A stretch of 64,000 bases of DNA. It comes from an uncultured delta proteobacterium (GTDB taxonomy: Bacteria; Desulfobacterota; Binatia; HRBIN30). The notes below the pieces were generated by a model. The model was not told the origin of the DNA and did no database searches. It saw nothing but the letters and a program-made list of their open reading frames with translations. The DNA lies in NCBI GenBank assembly GCA_963729835.1, contig CAVSQF010000022.1:296150-360149 (forward strand), written 5' to 3'. A program made the translations under genes and the position numbers. Positions 2,932-36,555 of this stretch are shown in pieces; position 1 is the first letter of the stretch; every line of letters starts with the position of its first letter.

Positions 2932-4330
2932 CATGGAAAAATGTTTCCACGTGACAATATGGGGCGAAGGAAACAACCGAGTACGTCCGATGGCTTTGCG
3001 GCTGTTGCTCGGGGCCACGCTGGCGGCGGCAATCGTGTCATTTGCGGGCACCGAGGCCAGGGCGGTCCCGAGCTTTGCGCGGCAAACGGGGCTGGCCTGT
3101 TCCTCGTGTCACACGACGTTTCCCGAGCTCAACGCCTTCGGGCGTGCGTTCAAGATGCACGGGTATTCCGCGCTTGGAATGAAGGAGCTCGAAGAAACTG
3201 GCAGTGACAAGACGCCACCGTTGACGATCAATCGGGCCTTTCCTTTGTCGGTGATGTTCCAGACATCGATCACCCGAACCAATCAGGCACAACCTGGAAC
3301 ACAGAATGGCAACGTCGAGTTCCCGCAGCAGATCAGCCTCTTTCTCGCCGGGGAGATCACGCCCCACATCGGTACGTTCCTGCAGGCGACCTACGACGGG
3401 CAGAGCGACCACTTCACGCTCGACAACACCGATATCCGATTCGTCAACGATGCCCAGATCAACGGGAAGGAACTGCTCTATGGCCTCACCTTGAATAACA
3501 ACCCGACGGTGGAGGATCCCTGGCACAGCACGCCGGCCTGGGGCTTCCCGTTCGCGGCGTCAGACACCGCACCGTCGCCCGCCGCGAGCGCGCTTGTGGA
3601 CGGGGCGCTGGCGCAGCAGGTGGCAGGGGCAGGCAGCTACGCCCTCTGGAACAGGCATCTCTATGCCAACGTGGCGGTGTACCGGACCGCGAAGATCGGG
3701 AACCCCCAGCCACCGCCGGGAAACAGCAGCGGTACGATCCGGGATGTCGCGCCCTATTGGCGGCTCGCGTGGCAGCAGAACTGGGGAGCCAACTACCTCG
3801 AGCTAGGCACCTTTGGGATGTTCGCTCAAATGTTTCCCGACTTGAAGGATGCCGACGGTAACCCGATCAACTCTGCCGGCACCGACAAGTTCACCGATCT
3901 GGCCTTCGACACCCAATACGAGCGCCCGCTCGGCAAGGATTTCATCTCGGCGCACGCAACCTACATTTATGAGAACCAGCAGCTTGACGCTACGCAAGGC
4001 GCCGGCGCCTCGGCCCGGCGCAACGACAAGTTGCACACCTTCCGCCTCGATGGCATTTACCACTGGCGCGAGCGCCTGGCGCTGGCACTCGGCTACTTCC
4101 TCACGCGCGGGACGAACGACGCAACGTTCTACTCAAGCAGCATCAACGGCAGCCCGGACAGCGACGGCGTGCGGACCGAGATTAGCTATTTCCCGTGGCA
4201 AAACGTGAGGCTGTCTCTCCAGTACACGGTGTACACGGAGTTCGACGGCCGCAGCCATAACTTCGACGGCAGCGGTCGTGACGCGGTCGACAACAACACG
4301 CTCTACGCACTGCTGTGGCTGATGTACTAA
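2932..4330 (+). CDS. cyc2: Cyc2-like fused monoheme cytochrome c / outer-membrane beta-barrel (candidate Fe(II) oxidase or EET porin-cytochrome)
   Basis: Strong SD AAGAGGAGG 5 nt before ATG at 2932 (alternative ATG at 2989). Signal peptide MALRLLLGATLAAAIVSFAGTEARA. A single CxxCH (CSSCH) lies 10 residues into the mature protein. The following ~430 aa is amphipathic and beta-rich and ends in aromatic residues (LWLMY), typical of beta-barrel OMPs. Size and architecture match Cyc2. Confidence 0.65.
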
Positions 4331-4352: not shown

Positions 4353-4820
4353 ATGACGTGGTTCGGGCGCGTACCCAGGATTGCATTCCTGGCGTTCGTG
4401 GCAGTTGCGGGATCAACCGCGCGTGCGGACTCCGATGCAGACGCTGCCTTGCGCCAGGAGATTGGCGAGCTGAAGTACGCGGTGCAACAGCTCGGGGCGC
4501 GAGTCGAAAGCCTGGAGCAACGCCTCGCCGGGCGGCCCGCACCGACTCCGCAGCAAACCATCGAGGGCACCGCGCGGAAGGAATCGCCGCCACCTACGGC
4601 CCCGGGCGGCACAACTCAGGAGCGCTGGAGACGCCTCACGCGTGGGATGAGTGTGGAGCAGGTCGAGGCGCTCCTGGGCCACCCGCAACGCACCGTGGAC
4701 ATGAGCCCGAAGACAATCTGGTATTACTCGTATGAGGGCGTCGGCAACGGCTCCGTCGTCTTCATAAAGGACGGTGGGGTGATCGATTGGCAGAGTCCTC
4801 CGTTCGGTACGTGGTGGTAA
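4353..4820 (+). CDS. BamE/SmpA-OmlA-like secreted protein with coiled-coil segment
   Basis: Signal peptide (AFLAFVAVAGSTARA), coiled-coil EIGELKYAVQQLGARVESLEQRL. C-terminal block GMSVEQVEALLGHPQ...WYYSYEG...VVFIKDGGV resembles the SmpA_OmlA fold. Confidence 0.5.
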   Translation: MTWFGRVPRIAFLAFVAVAGSTARADSDADAALRQEIGELKYAVQQLGARVESLEQRLAGRPAPTPQQTIEGTARKESPPPTAPGGTTQERWRRLTRGMSVEQVEALLGHPQRTVDMSPKTIWYYSYEGVGNGSVVFIKDGGVIDWQSPPFGTWW

Positions 4821-4906: not shown

Positions 4907-5275
4907 ATGCGAGGGTTTCGGTTATCCTTATGCGCACTCATTGCAGCAAGTTCGCTCACGGCGATCCGGGCGCGCGCCGACGATACGGCGATGGCCAAGG
5001 CGCGCGAGAACTACATGAGCTACTGCACGAAGTGCCACGGCGAGCAGGGGAAGGGTGACGGTCCCGGCGCCGCCATGCTCAACCCCAAGCCGCGCGATTA
5101 CACCGATTGCAAAACGATGCAGAAAAAGCCGGACGAAGAACTCTTCAAGGTCATTAACGAAGGCGGCGAGGCCGCCGGCATGTCGGCGGACATGCAGCCC
5201 TGGGGTGGCACGCTGTCCGACCAGGAGATTCACGACCTCGTGAAGTTCATTCGCGGCTTCTGCAAGCCGTCCTGA
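4907..5275 (+). CDS. class I monoheme c-type cytochrome (periplasmic electron carrier)
   Basis: RBS AGGAAGGAG before ATG 4907. Signal peptide MRGFRLSLCALIAASSLTAIRARA, heme motif CTKCH and methionine-rich distal region (GMSADMQPWGG). Confidence 0.8.
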   Translation: MRGFRLSLCALIAASSLTAIRARADDTAMAKARENYMSYCTKCHGEQGKGDGPGAAMLNPKPRDYTDCKTMQKKPDEELFKVINEGGEAAGMSADMQPWGGTLSDQEIHDLVKFIRGFCKPS

Positions 5276-5298: not shown

Positions 5299-7227
5299 AT
5301 GGCCGACAAGGTCCGGGCGGTGATCCGCCCGCTGACGTGGTTCCGCGACAACGTGCCGTGCGTTGTGGCCTGTCCGGTGAAGACCGACGCGGGGCGGTAC
5401 GTGCAGCTCATCGGTGCGGGGCGCTACGAAGAGGCGTACGCGGTTGCCCGCTCGCCGAATCCGATCGCGTCAATTTGCGGGCGCACGTGTGGCGCGCCTT
5501 GTGAAGATGCCTGCCGGCGCGGCTCGATCGACGCGCCGGTGGCGATTCGGCCGCTGAAACGCTTCGTCACCGAACGGTTCGGGCCGGAGTCATTCAAGCC
5601 GATGGCGGTGGACGCGATTCCGAAAACGACGCGGGCATGCATTCAGAGCACGACGCCAGGACATCTGGAAGCAATGATGCCCCGGCGGGGGACACGGGCC
5701 AAAGTTGCCGTGATCGGTGCAGGACCCGCCGGCATGGCGTGCGCGCATGACCTTGCCGTCATGGGGTACCAAGTGACGGTGTTCGAGGCCATGGAACACG
5801 GCGGCGGGATGATGCGCTACGGCATCCCGGAGTATCGCCTGCCGCGCGAGGTCATCGACCGGCAGGTTGCTGAGATTCGCAGCCTGGGTGTCGAGTTCAT
5901 CTTCAGCCGCCCGCTCGGTGCAGATTTCGGTATTCGGGAGATCCGAGCGGCCGGGTACGCGGCTGTGTTTCTGGCCGTCGGTGCCGGTCAGGGACGCGAC
6001 CTGGCCATTGAAGGGCACGACGCGGACGGTGTCGTCAAAGCGATCGACTTCCTCTTAAACGTGAACCGTGGCTACCGCGTCGATGTCGGCGGCCGCGTCG
6101 TGGTGGTTGGAGGAGGCCTGGTCGCACTGGATGCCGCCCGCACGGCGGTGCGCGTGTTGCTCAGCGGCGCGGAACGCGCGGCGGAGGAGTTGGGCCGCCT
6201 GATCGGCACGGAAGTCCGTGTCGCTCTCGACGCGGCACGCGAGGCGCGGCGGCGCGGCGCCCTGGACGTCTCGGTGGTCAGCTTGGAGCAGCTCGAGGAA
6301 ATGCCCGCCATGCGCTCCGTGCAAGGGCGCGAGGAGATGGAGATCACGCACGGCGAAGGCATCGAGTTCATCCCCGGCTGGGGCCCGAAACGGATCGCGA
6401 GCGCAAACGGGCGTGCAACCGGCATCGAGCTGATTCGCTGCGCCCGCGTGTTCGACGACCAGGGCCGCTTCAATCCGTCGTTTATCCCCGGCAGCGAACG
6501 GATCGTGCCGGCGGACACGATTCTGCTCGCCATCGGGCAGCGGTCGGACTACAGCTTCCTGCGCCCCGAAGATGGCGTCGAACTCACGCCGAACGGACTG
6601 ATCAAAGTCGACCCGCAAACGCTGGCGACGACGGGCCAGGGGATCTTTGCCGGGGGCGACGGTGCGTTTCCCCCAAGCTTGCTCATCACCGCCGCCGAAC
6701 ACGGGAAGCGCGCCGCCGCCTCCGTCGATGCGTACCTCAAGGGCGCACGCCCCCGGCCGGCCATGCGGGTCGTGGCCGAGTTGCTGCCGCTCGAGAGCTG
6801 CCGCATGCCGGAGCGCTACGAGCAACTCACACGACACATCCCGGTCGTGCCGGTGGACCGACGCACGGGCATCACGGAGGTGGAGGAGAGTTACAGTGAG
6901 GCCGAGGCGCGGCAGCAAGCCGACCGCTGCCTCTCCTGTCACATCCACCCGATCTACAACCGCGACCTGTGCATTCTGTGCGCCCGCTGCGCCGACATCT
7001 GCCCGGAGAATTGCATCAGCTTCGTGCCGGCCGAGACCCTGGCACTCACTGGGAGTGATCAGGCAACCGTGGCCGCCCTGGCGCCAGCCGATCGGCCGCA
7101 TACGGCGTATCTCTACGCCGAGGACCGGTGCATCCGTTGCGCCTTGTGCGCCATCCGTTGCCCGACCGGGGCGATTACGATGGAGCGCTTCCAGTTCGAG
7201 GAGGTGGCCGATGGTGCTGCCGGTTGA
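5299..7227 (+). CDS. GltD-like NAD(P)H-dependent FAD oxidoreductase with N-terminal Fe-S cluster domain and C-terminal 2x[4Fe-4S] ferredoxin domain
   Basis: N-terminal Cys clusters (CVVACPV, CGRTCGAPCEDAC). Dinucleotide folds VAVIGAGPAGMACAH and VVVVGGGLVALD, plus GIFAGGD. C-terminus CLSCHIHPIYNRDLCILCARCADICP...CIRCALCAIRCPTGA. Start taken at ATG 5299 (track starts at TTG 5281). Confidence 0.75.
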   Translation: MADKVRAVIRPLTWFRDNVPCVVACPVKTDAGRYVQLIGAGRYEEAYAVARSPNPIASICGRTCGAPCEDACRRGSIDAPVAIRPLKRFVTERFGPESFKPMAVDAIPKTTRACIQSTTPGHLEAMMPRRGTRAKVAVIGAGPAGMACAHDLAVMGYQVTVFEAMEHGGGMMRYGIPEYRLPREVIDRQVAEIRSLGVEFIFSRPLGADFGIREIRAAGYAAVFLAVGAGQGRDLAIEGHDADGVVKAIDFLLNVNRGYRVDVGGRVVVVGGGLVALDAARTAVRVLLSGAERAAEELGRLIGTEVRVALDAAREARRRGALDVSVVSLEQLEEMPAMRSVQGREEMEITHGEGIEFIPGWGPKRIASANGRATGIELIRCARVFDDQGRFNPSFIPGSERIVPADTILLAIGQRSDYSFLRPEDGVELTPNGLIKVDPQTLATTGQGIFAGGDGAFPPSLLITAAEHGKRAAASVDAYLKGARPRPAMRVVAELLPLESCRMPERYEQLTRHIPVVPVDRRTGITEVEESYSEAEARQQADRCLSCHIHPIYNRDLCILCARCADICPENCISFVPAETLALTGSDQATVAALAPADRPHTAYLYAEDRCIRCALCAIRCPTGAITMERFQFEEVADGAAG

Positions 7228-7675
7228 GCCCGAGCGTCGTCGCGTTTTGCGCTGGATCGGACAATGGTCGGTGGTTGCGGCCATCGTCACCCAACTCGGC
7301 GGTGTGGTGCGGGCGTTCGTGCCCCGCGTGCTCTACGAGCCGTCGAAGAAATTCAAGCTCGGCAAACCCTCTGAGTATCCCGAGGGCGTCACGTTTGTGC
7401 CGACACACCGGCTGTTCGTGATGCGTGAGCGCAACCAGTTTCACGTGATCTCGGCCGTGTGCACCCACCTGGGGTGTACCGTGGAATGGAAAGACAGGCT
7501 GACCGAGTTTGATTGCCCTTGTCACGGCAGCAAGTTCCACAACGACGGCACGCCCTTCGCCGGCCCCGCGCCGCGGCCGCTGACATGGTACCCACTGAGT
7601 GTATCGGGCGACGGCTTCCTGGTCGTAGATTCCGCCAAGTCGGTACCGTCGACGTATCGCCTTGCGGTTGCGTGA
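7211..7675 (+). CDS. Rieske [2Fe-2S] iron-sulfur protein of bc-type complex
   Basis: TM helix WSVVAAIVTQLGGVV, Rieske boxes CTHLGC and CPCHGS. Start ATG 7211 overlaps the end of the upstream flavoprotein gene by 17 nt (translational coupling). Confidence 0.85.
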   Translation: MVLPVEPERRRVLRWIGQWSVVAAIVTQLGGVVRAFVPRVLYEPSKKFKLGKPSEYPEGVTFVPTHRLFVMRERNQFHVISAVCTHLGCTVEWKDRLTEFDCPCHGSKFHNDGTPFAGPAPRPLTWYPLSVSGDGFLVVDSAKSVPSTYRLAVA

Positions 7676-7684
7676 GAGCGTGTC

Positions 7685-8989
7685 ATGGGGGCGCAGCTGA
7701 CCCGATTCTGGCGTTGGATCACCTGGACGTGGAGCCCGGCAAGCGAGCGCGAAGCCAGCAGCGCGATTGTCGAGAACCTCTGGCTGCATTGGTTTCCGGC
7801 GAAAGTCGCCGAAGACAGCTTCACATGGAGTTACTCTCTCTGGCTCGGAGCGATTGCGGCCTTTCTGTTCCTCATCCTGACCGTGACCGGCGTGCTGCTG
7901 ATGTTTTTCTACGTCCCCTCGACCCAGCAGGCGTACTGGAGCATCAAAGACATCCACTACGTGGTCGGGTTCGGGTGGGTGCTGCGCAACCAGCATCGCT
8001 GGGCGGCCCACTTGATGGTGTTGGTGGTCTTTCTCCACATGCTGCGTGTTTTCTTCACGGGCGCCTACCGGGCGCAGCGCAGCGTGAACTGGCTCGTCGG
8101 TTTGGCGTTGCTGCTGCTGACCTTGTTCCTTTCCTTCACGGGCTATCTGTTGCCGTGGGACCAGCTGGCGTTTTGGGCAGTCACCGTCGGCACGAACATC
8201 GCCAAGGAAGCACCGTTGGTGGGGGCGGGGCTGCGGTTCGTCCTGCTCGGGGGAACGGAGATCGGCCAAAGTACGCTCGTGCGCTTCTACGTGCTGCACG
8301 TTGTCGTCTTGCCCGCGGCCGTGTTGGTGCTGTTCGCGTACCATATGTGGCGTATACGCCGCGATGGCGGCATGGCCGTCACCGACCCGGCTGCAACGGG
8401 CACCGCTCCCGTTGGTGGTGGGGCTCCGGTTGCTGGGAAGACCTACTCACTCTTCGGCATCACACCGGGGACCACCCTGGAGGTGCGTGCGGCCGGACCG
8501 CGCGATGAGGAGGACTCGGCTTTTTCATCACCCCACATGCTGCGGCGGCTGATGCTCGTCTTTCTCGGCGTGTTCACAATCACCATCGTTCTCAGTGTGC
8601 TTTCCGGAGCACCGCTGGAAGAGCCGGCGAATCCGGCGCTGACGCCGAACCCGGCGAAGGCGCCGTGGTATTTCTTGTGGCTGCAGGAGCTGGTGGCGAT
8701 TACCACGATTCGGTTGGGCGGGTTGACCCTCAGTGGGGGTCTTGTCGGTGGCATTTTGGTGCCCGGGATCCTGCTAGCGGCGGCGGTCGTCTGGCCATTT
8801 CTTGATGGCAGCCCGCTCCAGGTCATCGGCAAATGGTTCCCGCGGGAGCGCCGCGTGCAGAATACGGTGCTTGGGATCATCGCCTTCGCGATTCTGATCC
8901 TGGTGTTGATCGGCATGCTCATGCGCGGGCCGTATTGGCAGCTCTTCTGGCCCTGGCAAGCGTGGCCGGAGTTGCCACGCAGGTTGTAG
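7685..8989 (+). CDS. cytochrome b (b6-like N-domain fused to subunit IV-like C-domain)
   Basis: 434 aa polytopic protein with conserved cyt b blocks (WGAIAAFLFLILTVTGVLLMFFY, RNQHRWAAHLMVLVVFLHMLRVFF, LPWDQLAFWAVTVGTNI) and heme-ligating His pairs. Confidence 0.9.
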   Translation: MGAQLTRFWRWITWTWSPASEREASSAIVENLWLHWFPAKVAEDSFTWSYSLWLGAIAAFLFLILTVTGVLLMFFYVPSTQQAYWSIKDIHYVVGFGWVLRNQHRWAAHLMVLVVFLHMLRVFFTGAYRAQRSVNWLVGLALLLLTLFLSFTGYLLPWDQLAFWAVTVGTNIAKEAPLVGAGLRFVLLGGTEIGQSTLVRFYVLHVVVLPAAVLVLFAYHMWRIRRDGGMAVTDPAATGTAPVGGGAPVAGKTYSLFGITPGTTLEVRAAGPRDEEDSAFSSPHMLRRLMLVFLGVFTITIVLSVLSGAPLEEPANPALTPNPAKAPWYFLWLQELVAITTIRLGGLTLSGGLVGGILVPGILLAAAVVWPFLDGSPLQVIGKWFPRERRVQNTVLGIIAFAILILVLIGMLMRGPYWQLFWPWQAWPELPRRL

Positions 8990-9000
8990 CGGGTCGGACG

Positions 9001-10209
9001 ATGACCGGTCGCTTCCTTCACAACCGAGATTTCTGGCCGCTGCTGATCGCGTCGGTCGCTGCTTTAGTGGTCGTGCTCATCGTGGCATTCCGTGAGTACA
9101 CGCCGGAATGGCAGCACCGTATGGAGGCCTTTCGCAGTTATCTGCGCGGGCGCGGCGCGTATGATGCGGCGTCGACCGTGCCCAATACCGTGCAGCAGAT
9201 CTGGCTGCCGGCACTGGATCGGGTCGATCGTTGCATCAGCTGTCATGTCAACTACGATGCGTCGATTTCGGCGCTGCCCGATTTGCCGCCGCTGCACCGG
9301 TCGCATCCGGACCTGCCCTATATGGCGAAGCACCCCTTTCCCACCTTCGGGTGCACCGCGTGCCACGGCGGCCAAGGCTACGCCCTCGATCAGGCCGGGG
9401 CGCACGGCCTCGTGGAGCACTGGGATGATCCGCTGCTGAGCACCGCGCTGGCAACGCAGTACGGCCTCACGCGTGCGCAGCTGATGGAAACCAAGTGCAA
9501 CACCTGTCACCGGCGCGATGATTCGACGGCCGGAATGGATCTCATCAACATGGCCAAGGAGATCTTCGACAAGAAACGCTGCGTGTCGTGCCACGGCTTG
9601 CAGGGCGGCGGCGGGCTGGCCTCGTCGGACCTGACCTACGACGGCGACGTCAACCCCGAGCTTCTGGACTTTTCCAACGTGTCGGGTCCGAAGACGAGCT
9701 TGAACTGGGAGATCCAGCATTTCAAGAGTCCGCAACAGGTCGTGACACGCAGCGGCATGCCGAACTACCGGTTGAACGATGAGCAGGCGCGGGCGTTGGC
9801 GCTGCTGATGTTGAGTTGGCAGCGGGTCAGCTTCCCGCCCGAGTACCTCCCGGCAGCACGGCGGCGCCCACCGGCCGTGCTGCCGATTGTGCGCGAGGTG
9901 GCGTATCCCCCGCCGGCGACGACGGATGCGGGAAAGGAAGGCCGCTATGTGTTCAGCAATCGAGGTTGCAACACCTGCCATCGGGTCGGGGGCGGGAATT
10001 TGATTGGTCCTGATTTGGCAGCGGTCACGCAGCGGCGCAACGACAAGTGGCTCGGCACTTGGCTGAAAGATCCGGCGGCGGTGGTGGCGAAGGACCCGGC
10101 ACTGCAAACCTGGTCGCACGAGTTCGGCGACATCATCATGCCCAACCAGAATCTCAACGACGAGGAGATCGCAGGGCTGATCGCCTACATGCACGAGTTC
10201 CCAGAGTGA
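9001..10209 (+). CDS. membrane-anchored pentaheme c-type cytochrome (c subunit of the bc complex)
   Basis: ATG 9001 lies 12 nt after the cyt b stop. N-terminal TM (WPLLIASVAALVVVLIVAF). Five CxxCH motifs: CISCH, CTACH, CNTCH, CVSCH, CNTCH. Confidence 0.85.
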   Translation: MTGRFLHNRDFWPLLIASVAALVVVLIVAFREYTPEWQHRMEAFRSYLRGRGAYDAASTVPNTVQQIWLPALDRVDRCISCHVNYDASISALPDLPPLHRSHPDLPYMAKHPFPTFGCTACHGGQGYALDQAGAHGLVEHWDDPLLSTALATQYGLTRAQLMETKCNTCHRRDDSTAGMDLINMAKEIFDKKRCVSCHGLQGGGGLASSDLTYDGDVNPELLDFSNVSGPKTSLNWEIQHFKSPQQVVTRSGMPNYRLNDEQARALALLMLSWQRVSFPPEYLPAARRRPPAVLPIVREVAYPPPATTDAGKEGRYVFSNRGCNTCHRVGGGNLIGPDLAAVTQRRNDKWLGTWLKDPAAVVAKDPALQTWSHEFGDIIMPNQNLNDEEIAGLIAYMHEFPE

Positions 10210-12575: not shown

Positions 12576-12775
12576 AATTTACCTCTCATTGTTCGGTCGA
12601 GATACAACGTGACGACTCGCCGCGGTTCGTCTTTGGACACGATAACACGCCGGAACGCGCGGTCGAGGATGGACGGCAGCAGGGCGTCGAGTTCGGCGGC
12701 GGTCTCGGCTTGCAGGCGCTTCAGCGCGTCCACCTCTGCGTGCAGCGCGTTCAACTCCGCCACCATAGTCGACAT
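12572..12775 (-). CDS. small coiled-coil protein upstream of DUF2283 (possible partner)
   Basis: MSTMVAELNALHAEVDALKRLQAETAAELDALLPS...; 4-nt overlap with the DUF2283 gene start. RBS GAGGT. Confidence 0.4.
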   Translation of the reverse strand: MSTMVAELNALHAEVDALKRLQAETAAELDALLPSILDRAFRRVIVSKDEPRRVVTLYLDRTMRGKL

Positions 12776-12897
12776 TACCTCGGCTCCCCACCTGTTCACG
12801 TCACAGGCGACTACCTTCATCCAACAAAACAGCATGCCGCGTCAACCCCTGATCCGGCATAACGACCGCGTGCTTGAAGGCCGGCTTCACGCTTTCT

Positions 12898-13095
12898 TTA
12901 ACATCTCGGGCCGCGCTGCGGACGGCGGCCACCCCACTGACTTGAGGTTGCAAATTGTGACCTCAAGTTCTCGAACTCGGCATCGGTGAGCTGAACCATG
13001 AAGTCGGGGGGAAACCGTTCGCGGTTGCGCTTCACAGCCTGGACGAGAACCTTCGTTGGCAGGCCATACAGCGCCGCCAGGTCGGCGTCCTCGAA
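12898..13095 (-). pseudogene. remnant of ORF6N-domain (KilA-N-like) gene
   Basis: Minus-strand frame reads [58 protein letters not shown]. This matches the conserved ORF6N core but lacks start and the rest of the protein. Confidence 0.45.
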
Positions 13096-13265
13096 CTAGC
13101 AGAATCTGACGTTCGACGTTCGCAGCGGAGACCCGTAGCTGGCTCACAGCCGTTCCCTTGCCGGCAAACGTGTCCCACTGTCAAGAAGCGCGGGGGTGTT
13201 TCATTCTCAGCGTTTTCCCTCGCCGACCGCCTCGCAAAACGTCAAATATGCGCTAGGAAGGTATC

Positions 13266-13727
13266 ATGACGCTGACGATCACCAACCCCATTCTGGCCGC
13301 GCTGCGCGCGCACGCCTGCGAGGCGTATCCGGATGAGTGTTGCGGCTTGGTGATTGGACGTAACGCCGGCCAGGAGGCGGTGCGGGTGACCAACGTGCAA
13401 GACGAGCTGCACGCCAAAGATCCCGCGCAGTTCCCGCGTACCGCGCGGATTGCCTACACCATGGGGCCGGACGCGGCGCCGCTTCTGATCGCCGCCGAGC
13501 GTGGCGAGCTGACGCTGCGCGCCTTCTATCACTCGCATCCCGACCACGACGCGTACTTTTCCGCCGAGGACCGCACGCAGGCCCTGGGCGGTTGGGACGA
13601 ACCGAATTACCCGCACGCCCTGCAGATCGTCATGTCGGTGCGCAACGGGCAGCTGTGCGCGACCAAGGCATTTGCGTGGGATCAAGCCGCGCGCGATTTC
13701 GTCGAGATTCCGCTCGTCGTTCAGTGA
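13266..13727 (+). CDS. JAB/MPN (JAMM) metalloprotease-domain protein
   Basis: RBS AGGAAGG before ATG. ECCGLVIG...E, HSHPDHDAYFSAED (JAMM HxHx7Sx2D motif). Confidence 0.8.
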   Translation: MTLTITNPILAALRAHACEAYPDECCGLVIGRNAGQEAVRVTNVQDELHAKDPAQFPRTARIAYTMGPDAAPLLIAAERGELTLRAFYHSHPDHDAYFSAEDRTQALGGWDEPNYPHALQIVMSVRNGQLCATKAFAWDQAARDFVEIPLVVQ

Positions 13728-13816
13728 CGAAAGAGAGTCTGCGCACGGCAGGACGAAAATTGGCGGGCGGCAGCCCGCGCCAGGGGGCCGTTGCGAATTC
13801 CGCACGCCCAGGGCAG

Positions 13817-15175
13817 ATGGCAGATATGCAAAAACCAAATTGGCTGGCGCCGCTCTTCCCGTGGAAGCAGCGGCTCATGGCCGTGAACGGCCGGCGGATG
13901 GCGTACATTGACGAAGGTGCGCGCGGCGGGCGCCCGGTCTTGCTCCTGTCCGGTAATCCGACGTGGGGCTTTCTGTACCGCGACTTCATCGCCCCCCTGA
14001 CGGACGCCGGCTACCGCGCCATCGCGCCCGACTGGGTGGGAACCGGCTACTCCGATCACCCGCGCGTGGACGCGGCCTTGACGTTTGCGCATCATATCGC
14101 CGACCTCGTGTCGCTCATCGATCAGCTCGAGTTGCGGGGCTTCGTCGTGGTCGGGCAGGACTGGGGCGGGCCGCAGGGAGTCGGCGCCGCGCTGCAGCGG
14201 CACGAACACCTCTCGGCACTGGTGCTGATGAGCACCTGGCTCTTCACCGGCTTCGTGGGGCGCTTCCACTCCTCGCCGCGACCATGGACGACGTGGCACG
14301 CGCCGTTGATCAGCCAGTATTTCATGAAGCGGCACAAGGTGCTGTCACACGGCGGCCCTTCGATGATTTCGCAGCGCGGCATGAGCGACGCCGAGGCGCG
14401 CGCCTACCATCACGTCTTCGACGAGCCGGACTCGGACCACGTCGTGCTCACCTGGCCGCGCACCATTCCGATGCGCGCGGGCGACCGCGGTTGGGCGGAC
14501 ATGGCGGCCATCGAGCGGCGGCTCCCTCAGCTCGCGAACATCCCCACCCTGCTACTCTACGCGACACAGGATAGTGTGTTCGGAAAGCCGTACGCCGACC
14601 GCCTCAAGGAGCGTCTGCCGCATGCGGAGGGTCCGCACCCGATCGAACGCGCCGACCACTTTCTCCAGGATGATCGCGGGCCGGAAATCGCCAAGGCGAT
14701 CGTGAGCTTTCTGGAACGCTCGGTCGGGTCCGCTGCGCCAGCGGGCGACGCAGCACGGAAGCCCGCGCACAGCCAGCGCGCCGAGAACTGGCAGCTGACC
14801 TTCATTTCGCCTGCTGATGAGGAGATTGCGGCGCGGCGCGCCGACCCGTTGCTCATCGAGCAGGATCTCGATGTTCGTCCGGAAGTCGCCGGCGCGCTCG
14901 AACGCGTCACCGGAAGGCGAGCGGGGCGTGTCTATTGGCGCTCCGCGCACAATCACCTGTATGCTTTGGAGCTGGCTGACCTGGGGCGCGGCCGGCCGTC
15001 GATGGCCACCGTCTACGGGTTTTGGGAGCGCTGGGAGCCCCGCCCGCCCGAGGAAGAGATCGACGCCGACCTTCTGGACTTCTGCCTCTGGGTCGCCGCG
15101 ATCAGCCCGGGTATCGACGCGGCCGACGTCGCCCGCGTCGCCGAACGCGCGGGTATCCACCCGGGCGTCGCATAA
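13817..15175 (+). CDS. alpha/beta hydrolase (haloalkane dehalogenase-like) with ~150-aa C-terminal extension
   Basis: PVLLLSGNPTWGFLYRDFIAPL, VVVGQDWGG nucleophile elbow (Asp nucleophile as in haloalkane dehalogenases). Track ORF start 13592 is antisense-overlap artefact; ATG at 13817. Confidence 0.75.
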   Translation: MADMQKPNWLAPLFPWKQRLMAVNGRRMAYIDEGARGGRPVLLLSGNPTWGFLYRDFIAPLTDAGYRAIAPDWVGTGYSDHPRVDAALTFAHHIADLVSLIDQLELRGFVVVGQDWGGPQGVGAALQRHEHLSALVLMSTWLFTGFVGRFHSSPRPWTTWHAPLISQYFMKRHKVLSHGGPSMISQRGMSDAEARAYHHVFDEPDSDHVVLTWPRTIPMRAGDRGWADMAAIERRLPQLANIPTLLLYATQDSVFGKPYADRLKERLPHAEGPHPIERADHFLQDDRGPEIAKAIVSFLERSVGSAAPAGDAARKPAHSQRAENWQLTFISPADEEIAARRADPLLIEQDLDVRPEVAGALERVTGRRAGRVYWRSAHNHLYALELADLGRGRPSMATVYGFWERWEPRPPEEEIDADLLDFCLWVAAISPGIDAADVARVAERAGIHPGVA

Positions 15176-16757: not shown

Positions 16758-18371
16758 TCACATCAGTTGCGCGAAGAAGTCGTTGCCCTTGTCATCGACC
16801 AGAATGAACGCGGCGAAGTCCTCCACCTCGATCTTATAGATCGCTTCCATTCCCAATTCAGGATACTCGAGTAGCTCCACCTTCTTGATGTTGTCCTGCG
16901 CGAGGATGGCGGCCGCGCCGCCGATGGAGCCGAGATAGAAACCCCCGTACTTCTTGCACGCCTCGGTCACTTGCGGGCTGCGGTTGCCCTTGGCGATCAT
17001 GATCAGCGAGCCGCCCTTTGATTGGAACAGGTCCACGTAGGAATCCATCCGCCCGGCGGTGGTGGGGCCGAAAGACCCCGACGGCATCCCGGCCGGCGTC
17101 TTGGCCGGTCCGGCGTAATAGATGGGGTGGTCCTTGACGTACTGCGGCAGGTCCTCGCCGCGATCGAGCCGCTCCTGGAGCTTCGCATGGGCGATGTCAC
17201 GGGCCACGATGATGGTGCCCGTCAGCGACAGCTGCGTTTTGACCGGGTACTTCGTCAGCTCGGCGAGGATTTGCGGCATGGGCCGGTTGAGGTTGAGTTT
17301 CACGACGCCGTGCTCGTGCTTGCCACGGTACTTCGCCGGGATGAAGCGGCCCGGATTGCGCTCCAGCTCCTCGACCCAGATCCCCTCGCGGTTGATCTTC
17401 GCCTTCACGTTGCGATGGGCTGAGCACGACACGCCCATCCCGAGCGGGCACGAGGCGCCGTGCCGCGGCAGACGAACGACCCGGACGTCGAGGGCGAAAT
17501 ACTTTCCGCCGAACTGGGCGCCGATTCCGCTCTGTCGGGCCGCCTCGTAGAGCCGGCCCTCGAGTTCGAGGTCGCGGAAAGCCTGACCGCTGTCATTGCC
17601 TTGCGTGGGCAGGCCGTCCAAGTAGCCGGTGCTGGCCAGTTTCACCGTCTTGAGGCACATTTCAGCGGACGTGCCACCGACGACGAAAGCGATGTGATAC
17701 GGCGGGCACGCTGCCGTGCCGAGGGTTTTCATCTTCGCGACAAGAAAGCGCTCGAGCCGCTCCGGCGTCAGCAAGGCTTTGGTTTCTTGGAAAAGGTATG
17801 TCTTGTTCGCCGAGCCACCACCCTTGGCGATGAAGAGGAAAGTGTACTCCATCCCGTCGGTTGCGTAGAGGTCGATTTGTGCCGGCAGGTTGTTGCCGGA
17901 GTTTTTTTCGTCATACATGTTGAGGGCCAAGGTCTGGGAGTAACGCAGGTTCTCCTTCAGATAGGTGTCGCGGATGCCGAGGGTCAGGAACTCTTCGTCC
18001 CGAACGCCGGTCCACACGCGGCCGCCTTTCTTGCCGATCACGGTCGCCGTTCCCGTATCCTGGCACATCGGCAAGACACCCTGCGCGGCCACCTCGGCGT
18101 TCTTCAGCAGCGCTAGGACCACGCCCCGGTCATTGTCGCTAGCCGCCGGGTCGTCGAGAATGGCCGCGAGCTGCTGGAGGTGGTTGGTGCGCAACAGGAA
18201 TTCCGCGTCCCGCATGGCCTCGCGCGCGAGGACGGTGAGCCCTTCGGGATCGACCTTGAGCACCTCCTCACCGTCGAGCCGTGTCGTGGAGATGTACGCG
18301 CTGGTGACCAGCCGGTAGCGCGTTTCGTCTTTCGAATGGGGGAACAAATCGTGATACGTAAACTCTACCAT
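16758..18371 (-). CDS. class I fumarate hydratase (fused alpha/beta, Fe-S dependent)
   Basis: RBS GGAGTGAAAGAA before ATG 18371. [11 protein letters not shown]..., [17 protein letters not shown], large 537-aa FumA/FumB-type sequence. The upstream part of the track ORF (to 18779) is artefact. Confidence 0.9.
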
Positions 18372-18635
18372 TTCTTTCACTCCTGACGGTGTGCTCTCGC
18401 GGTAGTGCCGGCGCAGACGCGACGGGAGCGGAGCACCCGGGGTACATTCGCACATTGGCAGCGAAGAATCCATAACGGTGGCCCCACTGCCGCAACCTGT
18501 TCCCGTGGGCCGGCCGCTCAAGTCCGGCCGCCACGCTGAGTCGCATTCTAAGGTCTGCAGTCCGCGACCACTTGTATAATGCCCCTCAGTCGTGATCTGC
18601 ATTGTTGGAGACGTGAGCACGCGGAGGGATCGAGA

Positions 18636-20351
18636 ATGCGAAGATGGGTTTTCGGGATTGCTTTGACCTGCTTGGCCGCAGGTTGTGGCGAGAGTTCGGA
18701 GGATTTCGGCGCGCCACCAGCCCCGCCCGCATCCGGCTTCATCACCAATCAACACATCGTGTACTCGGATGGCTTGCACAACGAGAACACGGAGATGCTA
18801 CGGCTCGACGACCGCATCCTGCTGGTCTTCCGTGGCGGTGAGACCGCACAAACAGGGTCGAAGCGGGCGCGCATAAAGATCTTTGCCTCGACGGACAACG
18901 GCCAGACGTTCAGCCTGCTCAACCAAGTCTTTGCGCCCGAGGACCCGGCTAACCCGAGCAGCGGCCGCGACATTCGCGATCCCAAGCTCGTCGAAATGGG
19001 GAACGCCTTGTTCTTGTACGGCTGCAGCCGTCTCCCAGCCTCTACGTTCCGCGATCTCTTCGGCGAGGCGTGGACCGTGCGTGCCGCGTCGACCGACAGC
19101 GGCAGCACTTGGACGACACCGGTGAAGACCTACGCGGATATCGCGAACGGCGGCGAAACGTTTTGGGAGTTCTGGCGGTTCACGAAGCGCCAGTACACGG
19201 TTGCCGGGCAGAGCAAGCTGACCCTCTATGCCACGGGGTACAACGACGGCGACGTCACCGTCGACCTGTTCGCCTCTGATGACGGCGTGCAGTGGAAAAA
19301 AATCGGCACGATTCTTCACAGCTACGACGACGTGCCGAGCGAGGCCGAGCTGCAGTTCTTCGGCGACAACAACGAAAAGGCTGTGGCGCTCGTGCGGCTC
19401 GACAACCAGGATATCTTGGAAAATGGGCAAACGGCGATTTGCACATCCAGTGATCCATTCAACACGTGGGAGTGCGGCCGCCGTATCGAACAGCGGCTCG
19501 ATGGCCCGACGTGGATTGTCCGCCGGAGCGGCAATGCAATTCGGAACTTCGTCTTCGCCCGCAAGCACCTGCCGTGTACGGTCAAGCGGACGGCGGCGTA
19601 CGAGCTGCGCGGCGATCTGACGGATCCGACCGCGCCCGTCGAGGTGTGTGAGATTCAAGAGTTGAAGAGTGAGGGGGACACCGCCTACACGGCGCTCGCG
19701 CCGCTGAGTCAGGACCAGTACCTCCTGTCGTGGTACAGCAATCCGCTCGGCGAAGAGCTGCCGTGGCTGGAAGGGCAATTCTCCCCGAGCGATATCTGGC
19801 TGGCGACAGTGGATTTCAGCCAGGCTCCCGCGGCGTGCGTGCACCCGGAGCCGAAGCGCGCCTGCCCGTCACCGCCGTTGCCGGCAGGGACCGCGGTGTT
19901 CGACGTCACAGGCCAACATCTGCTGACCATCGGTCCGGTGTTTTGGCCGGCGCAGACGATTTCGTTCACAGCGGACGTGACGGTGAAAGGTTCCACCTTG
20001 GATATGACGTTGCAACCACTGGACGGGACAACGTACGTGCCGGTCGGTCCGGCGTGGACGGTGACGGGCGTCCCGATTCTCGCCGACGGCAGCTTCACGG
20101 TGAGTTTCGGTGCACAGCCGCTGCCGGCAGCTGCGTATCCGTTCTTCGACGATCCCTATCTTTCGCTGGGCGACTTCACGCTCATCGGCAAGACGACCTC
20201 GAAGGATGCGTTTTGCGGCTCTGTCACCGGTTACGCGGGGGTTTTGCCCGGGTCGCGGGTGCCAGACAGGCTGCGGCTCGAGGGGTCGACGTTCGGTGCG
20301 ACGCGGATCACCGGCAGCACATTGCCCGCGCCGGTTATTTCCTGCCAGTGA
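18636..20351 (+). CDS. BNR/Asp-box repeat (sialidase-fold) lipoprotein
   Basis: Lipobox LAAGC; Asp-box repeats [26 protein letters not shown]. Confidence 0.6.
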
Positions 20352-20551
20352 GCTGTGCGTGCCAGGGTTCCGGCGTCTGATGCGTCTCAACGGTTGACTC
20401 ATAGCGCGGGCTCTGGCCCGCAACCCAACACCTGCCGCCCGCGTAGCTCAGCTGCCGGAGTGAGCCGGGACCGTTGTGTCGGCGGCGGACTCGGGTTACA
20501 AGAAACCGTCCGAACGATTCCCGTCTTGAACACAATCACAGGAGCGCACAG

Positions 20552-30709: not shown

Positions 30710-32687
30710 ATGGTACGAACTGGGCTGAAGGCGTGGGTGGTCGCGGGCGTGGTGGTGGTATCGCTGCTCGGATTGCGAGCCGGCAGCAGCGCGATCTCGC
30801 TCGACAGCGACGGCGACATGAAGTTGGGCGTGCGGACGTACGTCAACGCCCGAGTTGGGACGGAGGATACGCATGACGGTGTGATGACGACGCCCGTCAC
30901 CGATCCAACTACGGGCCAGTCCGTGACGACCTCGACCTCCGCGACCTTCCCACACTCGAGTCGCCGGCCATCTGCGGCAGAATCGTTTCTTCATCGAAGT
31001 CGAGCTGAACCACGACCTCGATCGGCTTGCGAATCAAGGCGTCGGCCCCTTGAGCCTCCTCAAAGAGTTGCCGTTCAAAGTGAAGGGGCTGGCGTACCAC
31101 TTCACGTTTCGCGGCGAGGGAGACGGTCTGTACGACTGGGGACCTTGGGAGTACAGCACGGCACAGCCGATCCAGGAATTGAGAACCACATCCCCCCCCA
31201 GCTCACTTGTCTACCGCCAAGGTCCCGGTGGGGCCCCCTTAGACTGCACCACTGACCCGCGCTGTGGCCGCCAAACTTTCATCGACGTCGCGGCAGAACG
31301 GGAGAAAATCCGCCGCCTCGGCACAGACCGGGAACGGCTGTTCCAAGCCTACGTCGAAGGGGATGTCGGGAATTTATTCGTGCGGGTGGGGCGGCAAATC
31401 CTCGCCTGGGGTGAAACGGACGCCTTCCGACTCCTCGATCAGATCAACCCGACCGACAGCAGCTTCGGAGGATTCCTCGTTCCCCTTGACGAACGGCGCC
31501 TCCCACTCGATATGCTCCTGGCCAACTACTACCTCGGTGATTACGGGCCGTTCACGGAGATGCATCTGGAAGGCTATGCGGCCATTGACAATAGCGTTTC
31601 GTACTATCCGGGCGGCAGCAGTGTCTCGCCGTGGGGGCTCCCGAGCGACACGGCACCGGGGAACGAGGTGGAGCACTTCCTCATCCGGCCTGCCCGGACC
31701 ATCAACAACACACGCGGCGGATTCCAGTTGAAGTTCAACGTCCTGGACGCCACGTTTGGCGTCGCGCATTATTACACGCACCCTGACATCGAGGCCCTGG
31801 ACTCCCACACAAATCCGTGGGACCCTAATGGCAGCGGCGCGAGGGGTTTGCTCACCGCCTTCGATGAGGGCCTCCCATGCCCGATTATGAGCGGCAACAG
31901 CTCACAGAGCGTGGTGATAGGTGAGGATTTCTCCAACCGTCATTGCGGTTATATGGTACACATGTATCACACGGCGCCGAAGATGCAGGTGACCGGCGCC
32001 TCGACAACGTTTGCTCTGCCGCAGTATTACAGCGTGTTTCGGAGTGAGTTCGCGTATTTCAAAGACGAGGCCCACTTCAGGCAGCGCCAGCTCGACCCCT
32101 TTATATACAATAACCCTTTCAACACCCCCGACCCTTTCCACCCAGGGAAGAACTACCCCCATCTTGCCACGGGAGGCCGGGATCTCGGAGACTCGCTCAA
32201 TGCCATGGTGGGCCTCGATAACAACCAGTGGATCCGGTTTCTGAACCCGAATCAAACCTTTTTCATCTCGACGCAGTTCTTCTACAAACACATTCTCGAC
32301 GCGGGGGACCACAACATCTGGAGCTTGGGCAAGAACGGTCAGCGGCTCCTCAACCCGAATCGCGAAGTCCTTCCACTCTATTTGACTGAGACGCCTAATG
32401 GAGGGCAGGCGGAACCTGTCTTCATCACCAACCCGGCGGACTCCTACCTGCAAACCCTGATGATCGGCACCGATTACCGGAGCGGTACAATCTCCCCCAG
32501 CCTGACGTTCTTCTACGACTGGGGCGGCGCTTTCGTTTATCAGCCGGCGATCACGTTCACCCATGATCCCTTCCGCTTCGCGATCGATTACAGCATAATC
32601 GACGCGCATATCTACAAGGGTGGCAGCGGCGTCAGCTTGCTCAAGGATCGGGACAACGTCCAGTTCCGCTTCGAGTATGTGATCTGA
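30710..32687 (+). CDS. DUF1302 family outer-membrane protein, interrupted by an apparent frameshift near 30930-30960
   Basis: Frame 1 gives signal peptide (MVRTGLKAWVVAGVVVVSLLGLRAGSSA). Frame 2 from ~30927 gives the DUF1302 body (...LFVRVGRQILAWGETDAFRLLDQINPTD...), ending FRFEYVI. No start codon with signal peptide exists in frame 2. Confidence 0.6.
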
Positions 32688-32958
32688 TTGGTGCGTCGTG
32701 CGTCCGCCGGGCAGGGGCAGCGACGGAATGCGCTCGCGGGTGATCCGTAGTGCATTCCAGTGAGTCGCGGTCGTGTCCGTCGACGCGTACAGACCCAAAG
32801 GCGACAGGGGGGTGAAGTCTGCTGAAAGACCGGGACAACGTGCAGTTCCGTCTGGAATATGTGATTTGATTTGTGGTAAATGCTGCGGGTCGCCTCCGGG
32901 GCACAGCGACCGCGTCGTGACTTTGCGTCAGAAGATCAGAAGAGAAGGGGAAGCGCGG

Positions 32959-33966: not shown

Positions 33967-33994
33967 TGGGGTTGTTCAAGGAGGTCCCGAGGAA

Positions 33995-36517: not shown

Positions 36518-36555
36518 GACACGCGTACGATTAAGTGATGAGGAGGTTTTCGATT

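Follow-up and report, generated by a model that had tools for sequence, protein, structure and literature searches.

A predicted NAD(H)-linked flavoprotein subunit of Rieske/cytochrome b complexes within and beyond anammox bacteria

Introduction

The closest described relatives of the system treated here are two complexes of the anaerobic ammonium-oxidizing (anammox) bacterium Kuenenia stuttgartiensis, R/b-2 (kuste4569-4574) and R/b-3 (kustd1480-1485), both of which have an NAD(P) oxidoreductase subunit (PMC12954380). According to the account of de Almeida 2016 given in that paper, all subunits of the Kuenenia complex co-migrate in complexome profiling, and in the same second-hand account Kartal and co-workers proposed that bifurcation at the quinol-oxidizing (Qo) site drives NAD(P)+ reduction in anammox. 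The Rieske potentials were reported as +303 and +335 mV, the latter being that of the S-F type protein Kustd1480, and an AlphaFold3 model leads from haem b_N to an extra haem b, bound between two cytochrome b monomers by the His43 of each, and on through four Fe-S clusters to flavin adenine dinucleotide (FAD) (PMC12954380). Here we analyse a related flavoprotein gene, at positions 5299-7227 of a 64,000-nucleotide stretch of DNA (hereafter the window) from an uncultured delta proteobacterium (contig CAVSQF010000022.1 of assembly GCA_963729835.1, positions 296,150 to 360,149 of the forward strand), together with the Rieske/cytochrome b operon in which it lies.

Comparable gene neighbourhoods have been noted before. 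NAD(P)-binding Fe-S oxidoreductase genes were described beside 'subfamily G' cytochromes b in planctomycetes and in 'many other cases', and in the same work by Dibrova et al. long cytochromes b correlate with loss of the CxGG motif (PMC5600118). Kao & Hunte 2014 recognized a taxonomically mixed 'APWY clade' with S-F/S-Y Rieske proteins, suggested that it runs in reverse, and placed it with Mid+ to high-potential Rieske proteins, the S-F type being 'Mid+' at about +260 mV (PMC4122944). The window resembles this 'APWY clade' and 'subfamily G/G'' in combining APWY with an S-F Rieske protein, in a mixed taxonomy that suggests lateral transfer and in a fused cytochrome b without CxGG; the two papers, however, classify cytochrome b rather than flavoprotein anatomy, nucleotide motif or partners. 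The literature on Nitrospina gracilis and Caldithrix abyssi yielded only ordinary or Nap-linked Rieske/cytochrome b genes and no similar complex. The kind of system is already known, then: the subunit idea was proposed for anammox in 2011-2013, and the first-pass annotation of the window, made by a model from the letters and open reading frames, re-derived this published hypothesis. What is new here is a permuted Fer4_20 domain, an NADH-type motif with an insert, a uniform architecture free of haem c_n, the breadth of distribution, and variable partners including a link to Cyc2.

Results and Discussion

Linkage of the flavoprotein gene to Rieske and cytochrome b genes

Seven genes follow one another on the + strand in the order Cyc2-type, BamE-like, monohaem cytochrome c, flavoprotein, Rieske, cytochrome b and pentahaem cytochrome c, separated by 22, 86, 23, -17, 9 and 11 nt. 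The flavoprotein gene and those downstream of it are as follows.

5299-7227, + strand: flavoprotein gene, 642 residues, cytoplasmic, GltD/NfnB type, predicted to use NAD(H), FAD and four [4Fe-4S] clusters
7200-7227, + strand: junction, with the Shine-Dalgarno sequence GGAGG at 7200-7204, the Rieske ATG six bases on at 7211 and the flavoprotein stop codon at 7225-7227
7211-7675, + strand: Rieske [2Fe-2S] protein, 154 residues (Pfam Rieske, E 1.2e-12)
7685-8989, + strand: cytochrome b, 434 residues, a b6-like part fused to a subunit-IV-like part
9001-10209, + strand: pentahaem cytochrome c, membrane-anchored, CxxCH motifs from 9232, 9352, 9496, 9580 and 9967 (Pfam)

The flavoprotein frame opens with the ATG at 5299 and its 642-residue product is present in a public collection (P0001) at 100% identity and coverage; of the more than 7,800 homologues that were scored, those from 'Candidatus Binatia bacterium' are the closest with a name (82-84% identity). 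The first-pass annotation had reported that the end of this gene overlaps the Rieske start by 17 nt, which is correct for a Rieske ATG at 7211. This start is backed by homologues at two further loci (L003 and L008), with alignments beginning at residue 1, and the same TCGAGGAGGT plus ATG arrangement recurs at the L003 junction. Promoter and terminator scans inside the operon returned only chance-level matches relative to the shuffled expectation; the terminator or transcript boundary that would set the flavoprotein gene apart was looked for in this way, and no terminator-like site above chance was found in the operon.

In all, about 100 loci with a full-length relative, from Binatia, Tectomicrobia, Acidobacteriota, Planctomycetota and Ignavibacteriota, were examined. 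The genome scan took one genome per species and counted a locus as informative where flanking sequence was present, the flavoprotein was full-length and identity was at least 39%; the metagenome scan added 80 further loci at 46-84% identity. Same-strand genes for Rieske protein, cytochrome b and multihaem cytochrome c accompany the flavoprotein gene in 17/17 informative non-anammox genome loci and also in all three anammox loci (33-34% identity), and none of 59 loci with distant GltD/NfnB/HdrA-fused paralogues carries Rieske/cytochrome b genes. The metagenomes give the same picture: the Rieske gene stands directly downstream on the same strand at each of the 72 loci with sequence there, with cytochrome b next (46/46) and multihaem c present (41/41) wherever the flank extends far enough. 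Carriers are labelled Binatia, 'delta proteobacterium', Tectomicrobia, Acidobacteriota (six orders or families), Planctomycetota (Planctomycetales, Phycisphaerae and Scalindua/Kuenenia) and Ignavibacteriota.

The junction itself is also widely kept. An in-frame Rieske start that overlaps or abuts the flavoprotein stop codon is possible at 13 of 14 genome loci and 60 of 72 metagenome loci, 4 nt being the commonest overlap and start codons in homologues being best guesses. Between pairs of loci, the flavoprotein diverges in step with cytochrome b (r = 0.90) and with the Rieske protein (r = 0.85), about as closely as these two established partners follow each other (r = 0.87); part of each correlation reflects shared phylogeny. 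The idea that the flavoprotein is a subunit rather than a neighbour, put forward in the first-pass annotation, is supported by invariant synteny, overlapping junctions, co-divergence and homology to the co-migrating Kuenenia complex, and on this comparative genomic evidence the flavoprotein almost certainly belongs to the Rieske/cytochrome b complex.

Domains, fold and iron-sulfur clusters of the flavoprotein

The following features of the flavoprotein are referred to below.

5350-5577, + strand: Fer4_20 core, residues 18-93, covering profile positions 29-107 of 113; Cys 21, 25, 60, 64, 68 and 72 invariant in 63 homologues
5716-5733, + strand: FAD-binding GxGxxG motif (GAGPAG), residues 140-145; G140, G142 and P143 invariant in 63 homologues
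6109-6126, + strand: NAD(P)-binding GGGxxA motif (GGGLVA), residues 271-276; G271 and G272 invariant in 63 homologues
6853-6939, + strand: displaced first Fer4_20 segment with C544-x2-C547, residues 519-547, after the flavin domains
6970-7164, + strand: C-terminal 2x[4Fe-4S] ferredoxin domain (Pfam Fer4 / Fer4_7); eight Cys invariant

Pfam assigns Fer4_20 to residues 18-93 (E 1.1e-16), Pyr_redox_2 to residues 135-469 (E 5.2e-29) and Fer4 / Fer4_7, a two-cluster ferredoxin, to residues 550-628 (E 3e-8), so that all three domains expected in the first-pass annotation are matched and its description of a GltD-like flavoprotein fused to a ferredoxin domain holds. Every motif quoted there was recovered as well: CVVACPV...CGRTCGAPCEDAC, which contains Cys 21, 25, 60, 64, 68 and 72; GAGPAG; GGGLVALD (residues 271-278); GGD (residues 452-454); and the two-cluster ferredoxin, with its two CxxCxxCxxxCP motifs at residues 558-569 (6970-7005) and 611-622 (7129-7164). 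The flavoprotein has no transmembrane-like segment, the maximum 19-residue hydropathy of 1.43 being reached inside Rossmann beta1.

An AlphaFold2 model of the flavoprotein (mean predicted local distance difference test score, pLDDT, 72) has as its top Foldseek matches, all with probability 1.0, NfnABC (9bov/9n5u), StnC (8oh5), NfnB (5jca/4ylf), GltD and dihydropyrimidine dehydrogenase (DPD), and the same proteins lead a sequence search of solved structures. With NfnB, the NfnA of NfnABC, StnC, GltD and the N-terminal module of DPD (4ylf, 5jca, 9bov, 9n5u, 8oh5, 6s6s, 1gt8) the flavoprotein shares its fold, FAD, a nicotinamide nucleotide and a Fer4_20 domain with two [4Fe-4S] clusters. Unlike NfnB, GltD and DPD, it has no NfnA, GltB or DPD partner domains at its locus; its partner is a membrane cytochrome b, and there is a single electron exit from the flavin, for which reason flavin-based bifurcation is not expected.

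A GltD proper was considered and rejected on its NCBIfam scores (TIGR01317, 206 against a cut-off of 447 bits; TIGR01318, 196 against 483; TIGR01316, 246 against 472), and no GltB large subunit is encoded within the window or the approximately 100 related loci. Likewise, no alpha subunit of a molybdopterin/tungstopterin formate dehydrogenase (FDH) occurs in the operon, in its flanks or among these loci. The automatic Joint Genome Institute (JGI) names 'formate dehydrogenase beta subunit' and 'glutamate synthase beta subunit-like' are similarity transfers with no matching partner genes. One relative of the flavoprotein, P0244 (1069 residues), has a 437-residue N-terminal extension, which could reflect either a genuine fusion or two genes merged in gene calling; it was dismissed as a 'Rosetta-stone' fusion, since the extension contains tetratricopeptide repeats and is neither cytochrome b nor Rieske protein.

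The N-terminal Cys-rich Fe-S domain recognized in the first-pass annotation is indeed present, but it is incomplete at the N-terminus, and its first CxxC segment sits behind the flavin domains. Residues 519-546 (GITEVEESYSEAEARQQADRCLSC) alone match Fer4_20 positions 3-30 (E 1.8e-4), and artificial re-joining of residues 506-552 to residues 19-94 extends the Fer4_20 match to positions 3-107 and raises it to 80.5 bits, against 61.1 for the native N-terminus. Because the displaced segment completes the match when re-joined, the Fer4_20 domain is circularly permuted. The usual C-x2-C...C-x3-CP motif is divided into C544-x2-C547 and C21-x3-C25-P, and the N-terminal and displaced ligands (C21, C25, C60, C64, C68, C72, C544 and C547) make up eight for two clusters. 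Eight more lie in the ferredoxin domain (C558, C561, C564, C568, C611, C614, C617 and C621), and all 16 are invariant in homologue alignments, from which we infer four [4Fe-4S] clusters plus FAD. The RCLxC motif after the flavin domains is also found in the Kuenenia protein and in 79 of the 80 metagenome relatives. In NfnABC-type and HdrA-fused paralogues, compared at RCLxC and not at their N-termini, it aligns at the same place. No mention of a Fer4_20 permutation in this subfamily was found in the literature examined, and the permuted domain is an addition of this analysis.

The nucleotide site and a helical insert

Two further features distinguish the nucleotide-binding domain.

6157-6258, + strand: 34-residue helical insert before beta2, repeating the preceding helix (VALDAARTAVR / VALDAAREARR)
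6280-6288, + strand: S328-L329-E330 after beta2, in place of the NADPH-type YRR, a 2'-phosphate motif; aligned to YRR of 9bov, 9n5u and Kuenenia

Classically, an acidic residue following beta2 signals a preference for NAD over NADP; NADH-dependent glutamate synthases have a similar '-LE-' at this position, and NADPH-dependent GltD has '-YRR-'. None of 63 close homologues departs from S328, L329 or E330, and SLE or CLE occupies the YRR position in 66 of 67 metagenome loci. YRR occurs only in anammox loci and NfnABC-like paralogues, and the window flavoprotein lacks this NADPH-type site. Since SLE replaces YRR and an acidic residue after beta2 marks NAD, the flavoprotein probably uses NADH rather than NADPH. 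The first-pass annotation had allowed for electron exchange with either NAD(P)(H) or ferredoxin. Of these, ferredoxin is the less likely, because the C-terminal dicluster resembles the internal wire of the Kuenenia AlphaFold3 model and not a site for docking ferredoxin.

The insert, 13-45 residues long, is present in all non-anammox linked loci and absent from Kuenenia/Scalindua and unlinked paralogues. In the window, the helix repeat at 6118-6159 and 6217-6258 (LVALDAARTAVRVL / RVALDAAREARRRG) is identical in 24 of 42 nt, and the insert looks like an old tandem duplication.

Comparison of the complex with Kuenenia and with b6f/bc1

The window Rieske protein carries a Tat-type twin-arginine anchor (ERRRVL, 7232-7249) and the boxes CTHLGC (7460-7477) and CPCHGSKF (7514-7537), the latter of 'S-F' type, and its best solved relatives are 9rk4 (Kuste4569, E 3e-28) and 9rk3 (Kustd1480, E 6e-23). 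In cytochrome b, whose best solved relatives are b6 proteins (E 7e-43), the haem-ligating His pairs H104/H118 and H205/H220 have b6-type spacing, W53 (7841-7843) stands at the place of b6 Cys35 so that the haem c_n Cys is missing, and the Qo motif is APWY (8660-8671). His35 (7787-7789), in NLWLHWFPAKV, aligns with His43 of Kuste4571. The N-terminal approximately 135 residues of the pentahaem cytochrome c are homologous to the Kuenenia hexahaem subunit.

The comparison was made with a Kuenenia sp. metagenome-assembled genome (MAG) rather than the type strain; its Rieske protein is 87% identical to the solved Kuste4569 fragment. The locus (L002) encodes a Rieske protein, a 581-residue flavoprotein, cytochrome b6, subunit IV, a hexahaem cytochrome c and an octahaem protein like hydroxylamine oxidoreductase (HAO). 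The flavoproteins are 34% identical over residues 5-634 (E 5e-98), cytochrome b 46%, the subunit-IV part 35% and the multihaem c N-terminus 28%, and all four core proteins are homologous to the kuste4569-4573 complex. Like R/b-2 and R/b-3, the window encodes within the operon a GltD/NfnB-like FAD/NAD(P)/Fe-S protein whose domains follow one another identically, down to the displaced RCLxC and the C-terminal dicluster; it also shares the closest Rieske relatives, a b6-like cytochrome b core with APWY and the N-terminal His (His35 = His43), and the replacement of c1/f by a multihaem cytochrome c. There are differences as well. The flavoprotein gene precedes the Rieske gene in the window and follows it in Kuenenia; cytochrome b is fused to subunit IV and lacks CxGG, hence haem c_n, whereas in Kuenenia the two are split; the flavoprotein has SLE for YRR and the 34-residue duplicated-helix insert; and the cytochrome c is pentahaem with two class-I domains, not hexa- or octahaem. 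The window has no HAO-like subunit and instead has a monohaem cytochrome c and a Cyc2-type cytochrome-porin upstream, its host being a Binatia-like, non-anammox soil bacterium. Judged by its sequence, the window agrees with the Kuenenia type in the operon-encoded flavoprotein, full-length homology, Rieske type, including the potential-raising Ser, and N-terminal His, whose haem binding is a prediction, and departs from it in lacking the split cytochrome b with CxGG and the YRR site.

These departures are shared by the relatives of the window. CxGG is absent from all 62 metagenome cytochromes b and was found only in anammox loci and L017, non-anammox cytochrome b is often fused to the subunit-IV part, every one of the 19 + 62 linked cytochromes b has an equivalent of His35, and APWY is present in 51/51; by these motifs the non-anammox clade is uniform and distinct from the anammox type. 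The Arg of CxRC, which touches the extra haem in the Kuenenia model, was tried as a docking marker and dropped, several Acidobacteriota and Planctomycetota members being without it.

In fused cytochromes b, the n-side (cytoplasmic) linker between the b6-like and subunit-IV-like halves contains a conserved KTYSLFG-like segment (8438-8458, cytochrome b residues 252-258), kept in L001, L004 and L006 and present as variants in L010-L015 and L019. This segment is a candidate docking element for the flavoprotein. The window cytochrome b also falls just short of the NCBIfam thresholds for two b-type cytochromes of the Ext operon, which serves selenite/tellurite reduction in Geobacter: ExtP (257 against 290 bits) and ExtQ (72 against 150). 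These scores suggest that the Ext cytochrome b is a member of the same broad clade.

With canonical b6f/bc1 complexes the window shares the Rieske boxes, four haem-b His with b6-type spacing, subunit-IV-like helices and the place of the Qo motif. It differs in having neither cytochrome f nor c1, no haem c_n and APWY instead of PEWY, and in possessing a 52-residue N-terminal extension of cytochrome b with the conserved His and a cytoplasmic flavoprotein. A canonical bc1/b6f complex was rejected as an identification, given pentahaem c as the third redox subunit and APWY as the Qo motif.

High-potential partners

Upstream of the flavoprotein lie three further genes.

2990-4330, + strand: Cyc2-family fused monohaem cytochrome-porin, 446 residues, with signal peptide (context gene)
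4353-4820, + strand: small BamE-like protein, hydrophobic and signal-like at its N-terminus (Pfam BamE, E 1e-5); same place in L003
4907-5275, + strand: periplasmic monohaem class-I cytochrome c, CTKCH at 5024-5038 (Pfam Cytochrome_CBB3 / Cytochrom_C)

Published criteria for Cyc2 are the motif AXPXFAR[Q/K][T/Y]...CXXCH...PXL, called unique to Cyc2, a signal peptide, a single CXXCH, a length of at least 365 residues and a 16-strand porin (PMC8406198). The window protein has AVPSFARQT (3062-3088), GLA, CSSCH (3098-3112), TTF and PEL (3122-3130); its AlphaFold2 model (pLDDT 82.9) has 16 long strands and matches 16-strand porins including OprP and OprO in Foldseek. Pfam and NCBIfam models gave no match to this protein, and its homologues, of which there are more than 6,000, go under no more specific name than 'cytochrome C' or hypothetical. 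Agreeing with every published criterion, it is assigned to the Cyc2 family as a candidate of the Fe(II) oxidase type, and its gene is probably in the same transcription unit as the operon.

A Cyc2-like gene lies beside the operon on the same strand in 6 of 18 non-anammox genome loci (the window included), in 0 of 59 unlinked paralogue loci and at five metagenome loci. In the clade to which the window belongs, the link seems to hold throughout: 13 flavoprotein homologues and 13 Cyc2 homologues agree exactly in the length of their longest contigs, and L003 and L084 have the same order. A gene of the monohaem c type lies directly upstream of the flavoprotein gene in 13/13 metagenome loci with at least 60% identity and enough flank. 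The monohaem c itself shows partial similarity (E 5e-11, far below cut-off) to the NCBIfam 'cytochrome 579' of the Leptospirillum Fe(II) oxidation chain. Literature searches on respiratory complexes of Binatia/Binatota, and on Cyc2 beside a flavoprotein-bearing bc complex, found nothing relevant, which is no proof of novelty.

Other carriers have other partners. In two Acidobacteriota loci a gene for a secreted cupredoxin of approximately 200 residues (PF00127 plus a CarboxypepD_reg-like domain) is placed between the Cyc2-like and flavoprotein genes (L005, 5310-5921; L008, 2266-2871), and a third (L007) has a similar protein of approximately 220 residues in the same place, near 5301. In Holophagaceae and Blastocatellales MAGs the flavoprotein gene is flanked by the cbb3-type oxidase genes ccoN/ccoO and the maturation genes ccoG/ccoI, lying between ccoNO and ccoGI (L010, 3300-5393 and 8948-12905; L011, 3409-5460 and 7891-11801), and in an Ignavibacteriota MAG (L018) ccoN follows the operon at 12639-13853. 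In Kuenenia the high-potential partner is HAO-like. The operon-encoded periplasmic partner varies and the core is constant. In the Tectomicrobia locus L001 a gene for a PccH-family cytochrome lies on the - strand (2512-2943) about 4 kb upstream of the operon, with two-component regulator genes between. In Geobacter the PccH family is linked to electron uptake from electrodes.

The chain Cyc2 -> rusticyanin -> CycA1 -> bc1 -> NADH of Acidithiobacillus ferrooxidans invites comparison, its 'uphill' petI operon having the order cycA-sdrA-petA-petB-petC (PMC10654088). Shared with the window are the order cytochrome c / NAD-binding / Rieske / cytochrome b / cytochrome c, a Cyc2-family porin in the system and, in some related loci, a cupredoxin. 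The resemblance is an analogy only, however, as SdrA is of the short-chain dehydrogenase type and not homologous to the Fe-S flavoprotein, and PetABC is a canonical ubiquinol bc1 with cytochrome c1, reversed by proton-motive force.

Proposed reaction and its direction

The sequences show the domains and cofactor motifs, the layout of the operon, the constant gene linkage and the homology with Kuenenia; physical docking, nucleotide preference, and the path and direction of the electrons are what we infer for this complex. We lean towards the view that the flavoprotein is the n-side NAD(H) subunit of a Kuenenia-type complex, with quinone bifurcation at the Qo site as its most likely reaction. 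The flavoprotein would dock by its ferredoxin domain on the n-side of the cytochrome b dimer, wiring the FAD module through four [4Fe-4S] clusters to the n-side cytochrome b haems. Of the two electrons of a (mena)quinol, one would pass by way of the Rieske protein, the pentahaem c and the soluble cytochrome c to the high-potential partner, and the other, by way of haem bL, haem bH and the Fe-S clusters, to FAD and NAD+. By the rough estimate given below, the reaction would be near equilibrium and hence reversible. The APWY Qo motif with an S-F Rieske protein, the His35 of every linked cytochrome b and the operon-linked high-potential partners (HAO-like, cbb3 oxidase, and Cyc2-type with cytochrome c or cupredoxin) all fit bifurcation. 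The carrier lineages are presumably menaquinone users, as chemotaxonomy would have it, and this is the condition under which the energetics of bifurcation can work.

Several points weigh against this view. By a rough estimate that assumes approximately +90 mV for ubiquinone, -74 mV for menaquinone, +250 mV for cytochrome c, -320 mV for NAD+ and a membrane potential of about 150 mV, forward bifurcation from ubiquinone to a +250 mV cytochrome c is strongly endergonic, and even with menaquinone an acceptor of about +300 mV or more is needed, because the step from bL to bH opposes the membrane potential. The direction of flow is a hypothesis for every member, Kuenenia included. The clade of the window has no haem c_n, and several Acidobacteriota have not kept the CxRC Arg, so that the geometry of docking may not be that of Kuenenia. 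The choice of NADH over NADPH has as its whole basis the SLE-for-YRR replacement and a general Rossmann-fold rule. Finally, Cyc2-type proteins are generally interpreted as electron donors, being taken for Fe(II) oxidases, and this fits a reverse mode better.

In such a mode, a confurcation or 'reverse Qo' reaction, electrons from a reduced periplasmic cytochrome c (for example with Cyc2 oxidising Fe(II)) and from NADH would converge at the Qo site and reduce (mena)quinone, so that NADH would pay for the entry of high-potential electrons into the quinol pool. Since the reaction is near equilibrium with menaquinone by the same rough estimate, reversal is plausible and makes a serious rival, especially with a Cyc2 partner, although we hold it to be clearly the less likely direction. 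In its favour are the Cyc2-family gene directly upstream with its enrichment over paralogue loci, the Acidobacteriota cupredoxin placed between Cyc2 and flavoprotein just as rusticyanin follows Cyc2 in Acidithiobacillus, and the analogous gene order of the petI operon. It would, however, consume the NADH that lithotrophs must make; Cyc2 is linked in a minority, about 12 of 100 loci, and the cbb3 and HAO-like partners are electron sinks. Many Cyc2 homologues, moreover, come from organisms not known to oxidise iron (PMC8406198).

Two readings dispense with bifurcation altogether. In the 'membrane-anchored dehydrogenase' of Dibrova et al., electrons would run from NADH through FAD, the Fe-S clusters and haem bH to quinone at the n-side quinone-reducing (Qi) site, and the flavoprotein would do no more than feed the Q cycle. 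Reduction of quinone by NADH releases much free energy, dihaem cytochromes b of four helices are common anchors for Fe-S dehydrogenases of the cytoplasm (PMC5600118), and a fused cytochrome b that has lost haem c_n resembles bc1-type Qi sites. Such an enzyme would nevertheless waste much energy compared with complex I (Hauser et al., PMC12954380) and leaves the invariant high-potential Rieske protein, the multihaem c and the APWY/S-F combination unexplained, and we regard it as improbable. That the flavoprotein is a mere neighbour, a soluble GltD, the 'formate dehydrogenase beta subunit' of the automatic names or, by way of its C-terminal ferredoxin domain, an NAD(P)H:ferredoxin oxidoreductase of Nfn type, might be read from the JGI names of homologues, from a fold equal to that of NfnB/GltD and from the lack of a membrane segment. 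This is very improbable: GltB, molybdopterin FDH and NfnA partners are missing from the window and the approximately 100 loci, the NCBIfam GltD and glutamate synthase scores are far under their cut-offs, and in Kuenenia the orthologous protein was found to co-migrate with the membrane complex (de Almeida 2016, cited in PMC12954380). Above all, linkage to Rieske/cytochrome b is 100% across at least five named lineages, and because of these linkage data the neighbour reading is essentially excluded. Bifurcation by a complex that includes the flavoprotein as its NAD(H) subunit is the reading we favour.

Implications

The question of how lithotrophs obtain NAD(P)H from electrons at the level of quinone or cytochrome c is usually answered by complex I running backwards on proton-motive force. 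The anammox proposal of an NAD(P)H-generating bifurcation, biochemically a hypothesis, has largely been treated as an anammox peculiarity. The window and the approximately 100 related loci point to a uniform variant that is common in soil and sediment phyla, in uncultured and cultured lineages and in Planctomycetota that include non-anammox members, which widens the question beyond anammox and offers more tractable organisms. It also links the complex to iron cycling genes that are used as environmental markers.

A bolder extension, which we put forward tentatively and consider rather unlikely, is that in Binatia and several Acidobacteriota an NADH-type, haem-c_n-free complex is hard-wired to the Cyc2-type porin and a soluble cytochrome c or cupredoxin, forming a trans-envelope module that would couple extracellular iron or metal redox reactions to NAD(H) and menaquinone by reversible Qo bifurcation/confurcation. 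If true, reverse electron transport that is independent of complex I and does not draw directly on proton-motive force would be common among soil bacteria.

Other features of the window

Elsewhere in the 64-kb window there are no further respiratory genes, and nothing there hints at the quinone type or at terminal oxidases; this remainder encodes fumarase, aconitase B, ATP-binding cassette transporters, hydrolases and a DUF1302/BNR/MMPL/DUF1329 cluster. The class-I fumarase (16758-18779, - strand, 673 residues) has an N-terminal extension of approximately 180 residues, its Fumerase domain starting at residue 185, and aconitase B (20474-23107, + strand) is encoded nearby; both are tricarboxylic acid cycle genes unrelated to the operon. 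The four-gene cluster at 31050-37866 (+ strand) encodes, in order, a DUF1302 protein, a BNR-repeat (YCF48-like) protein, an MMPL-RND transporter and a DUF1329 (LolA-like) protein.

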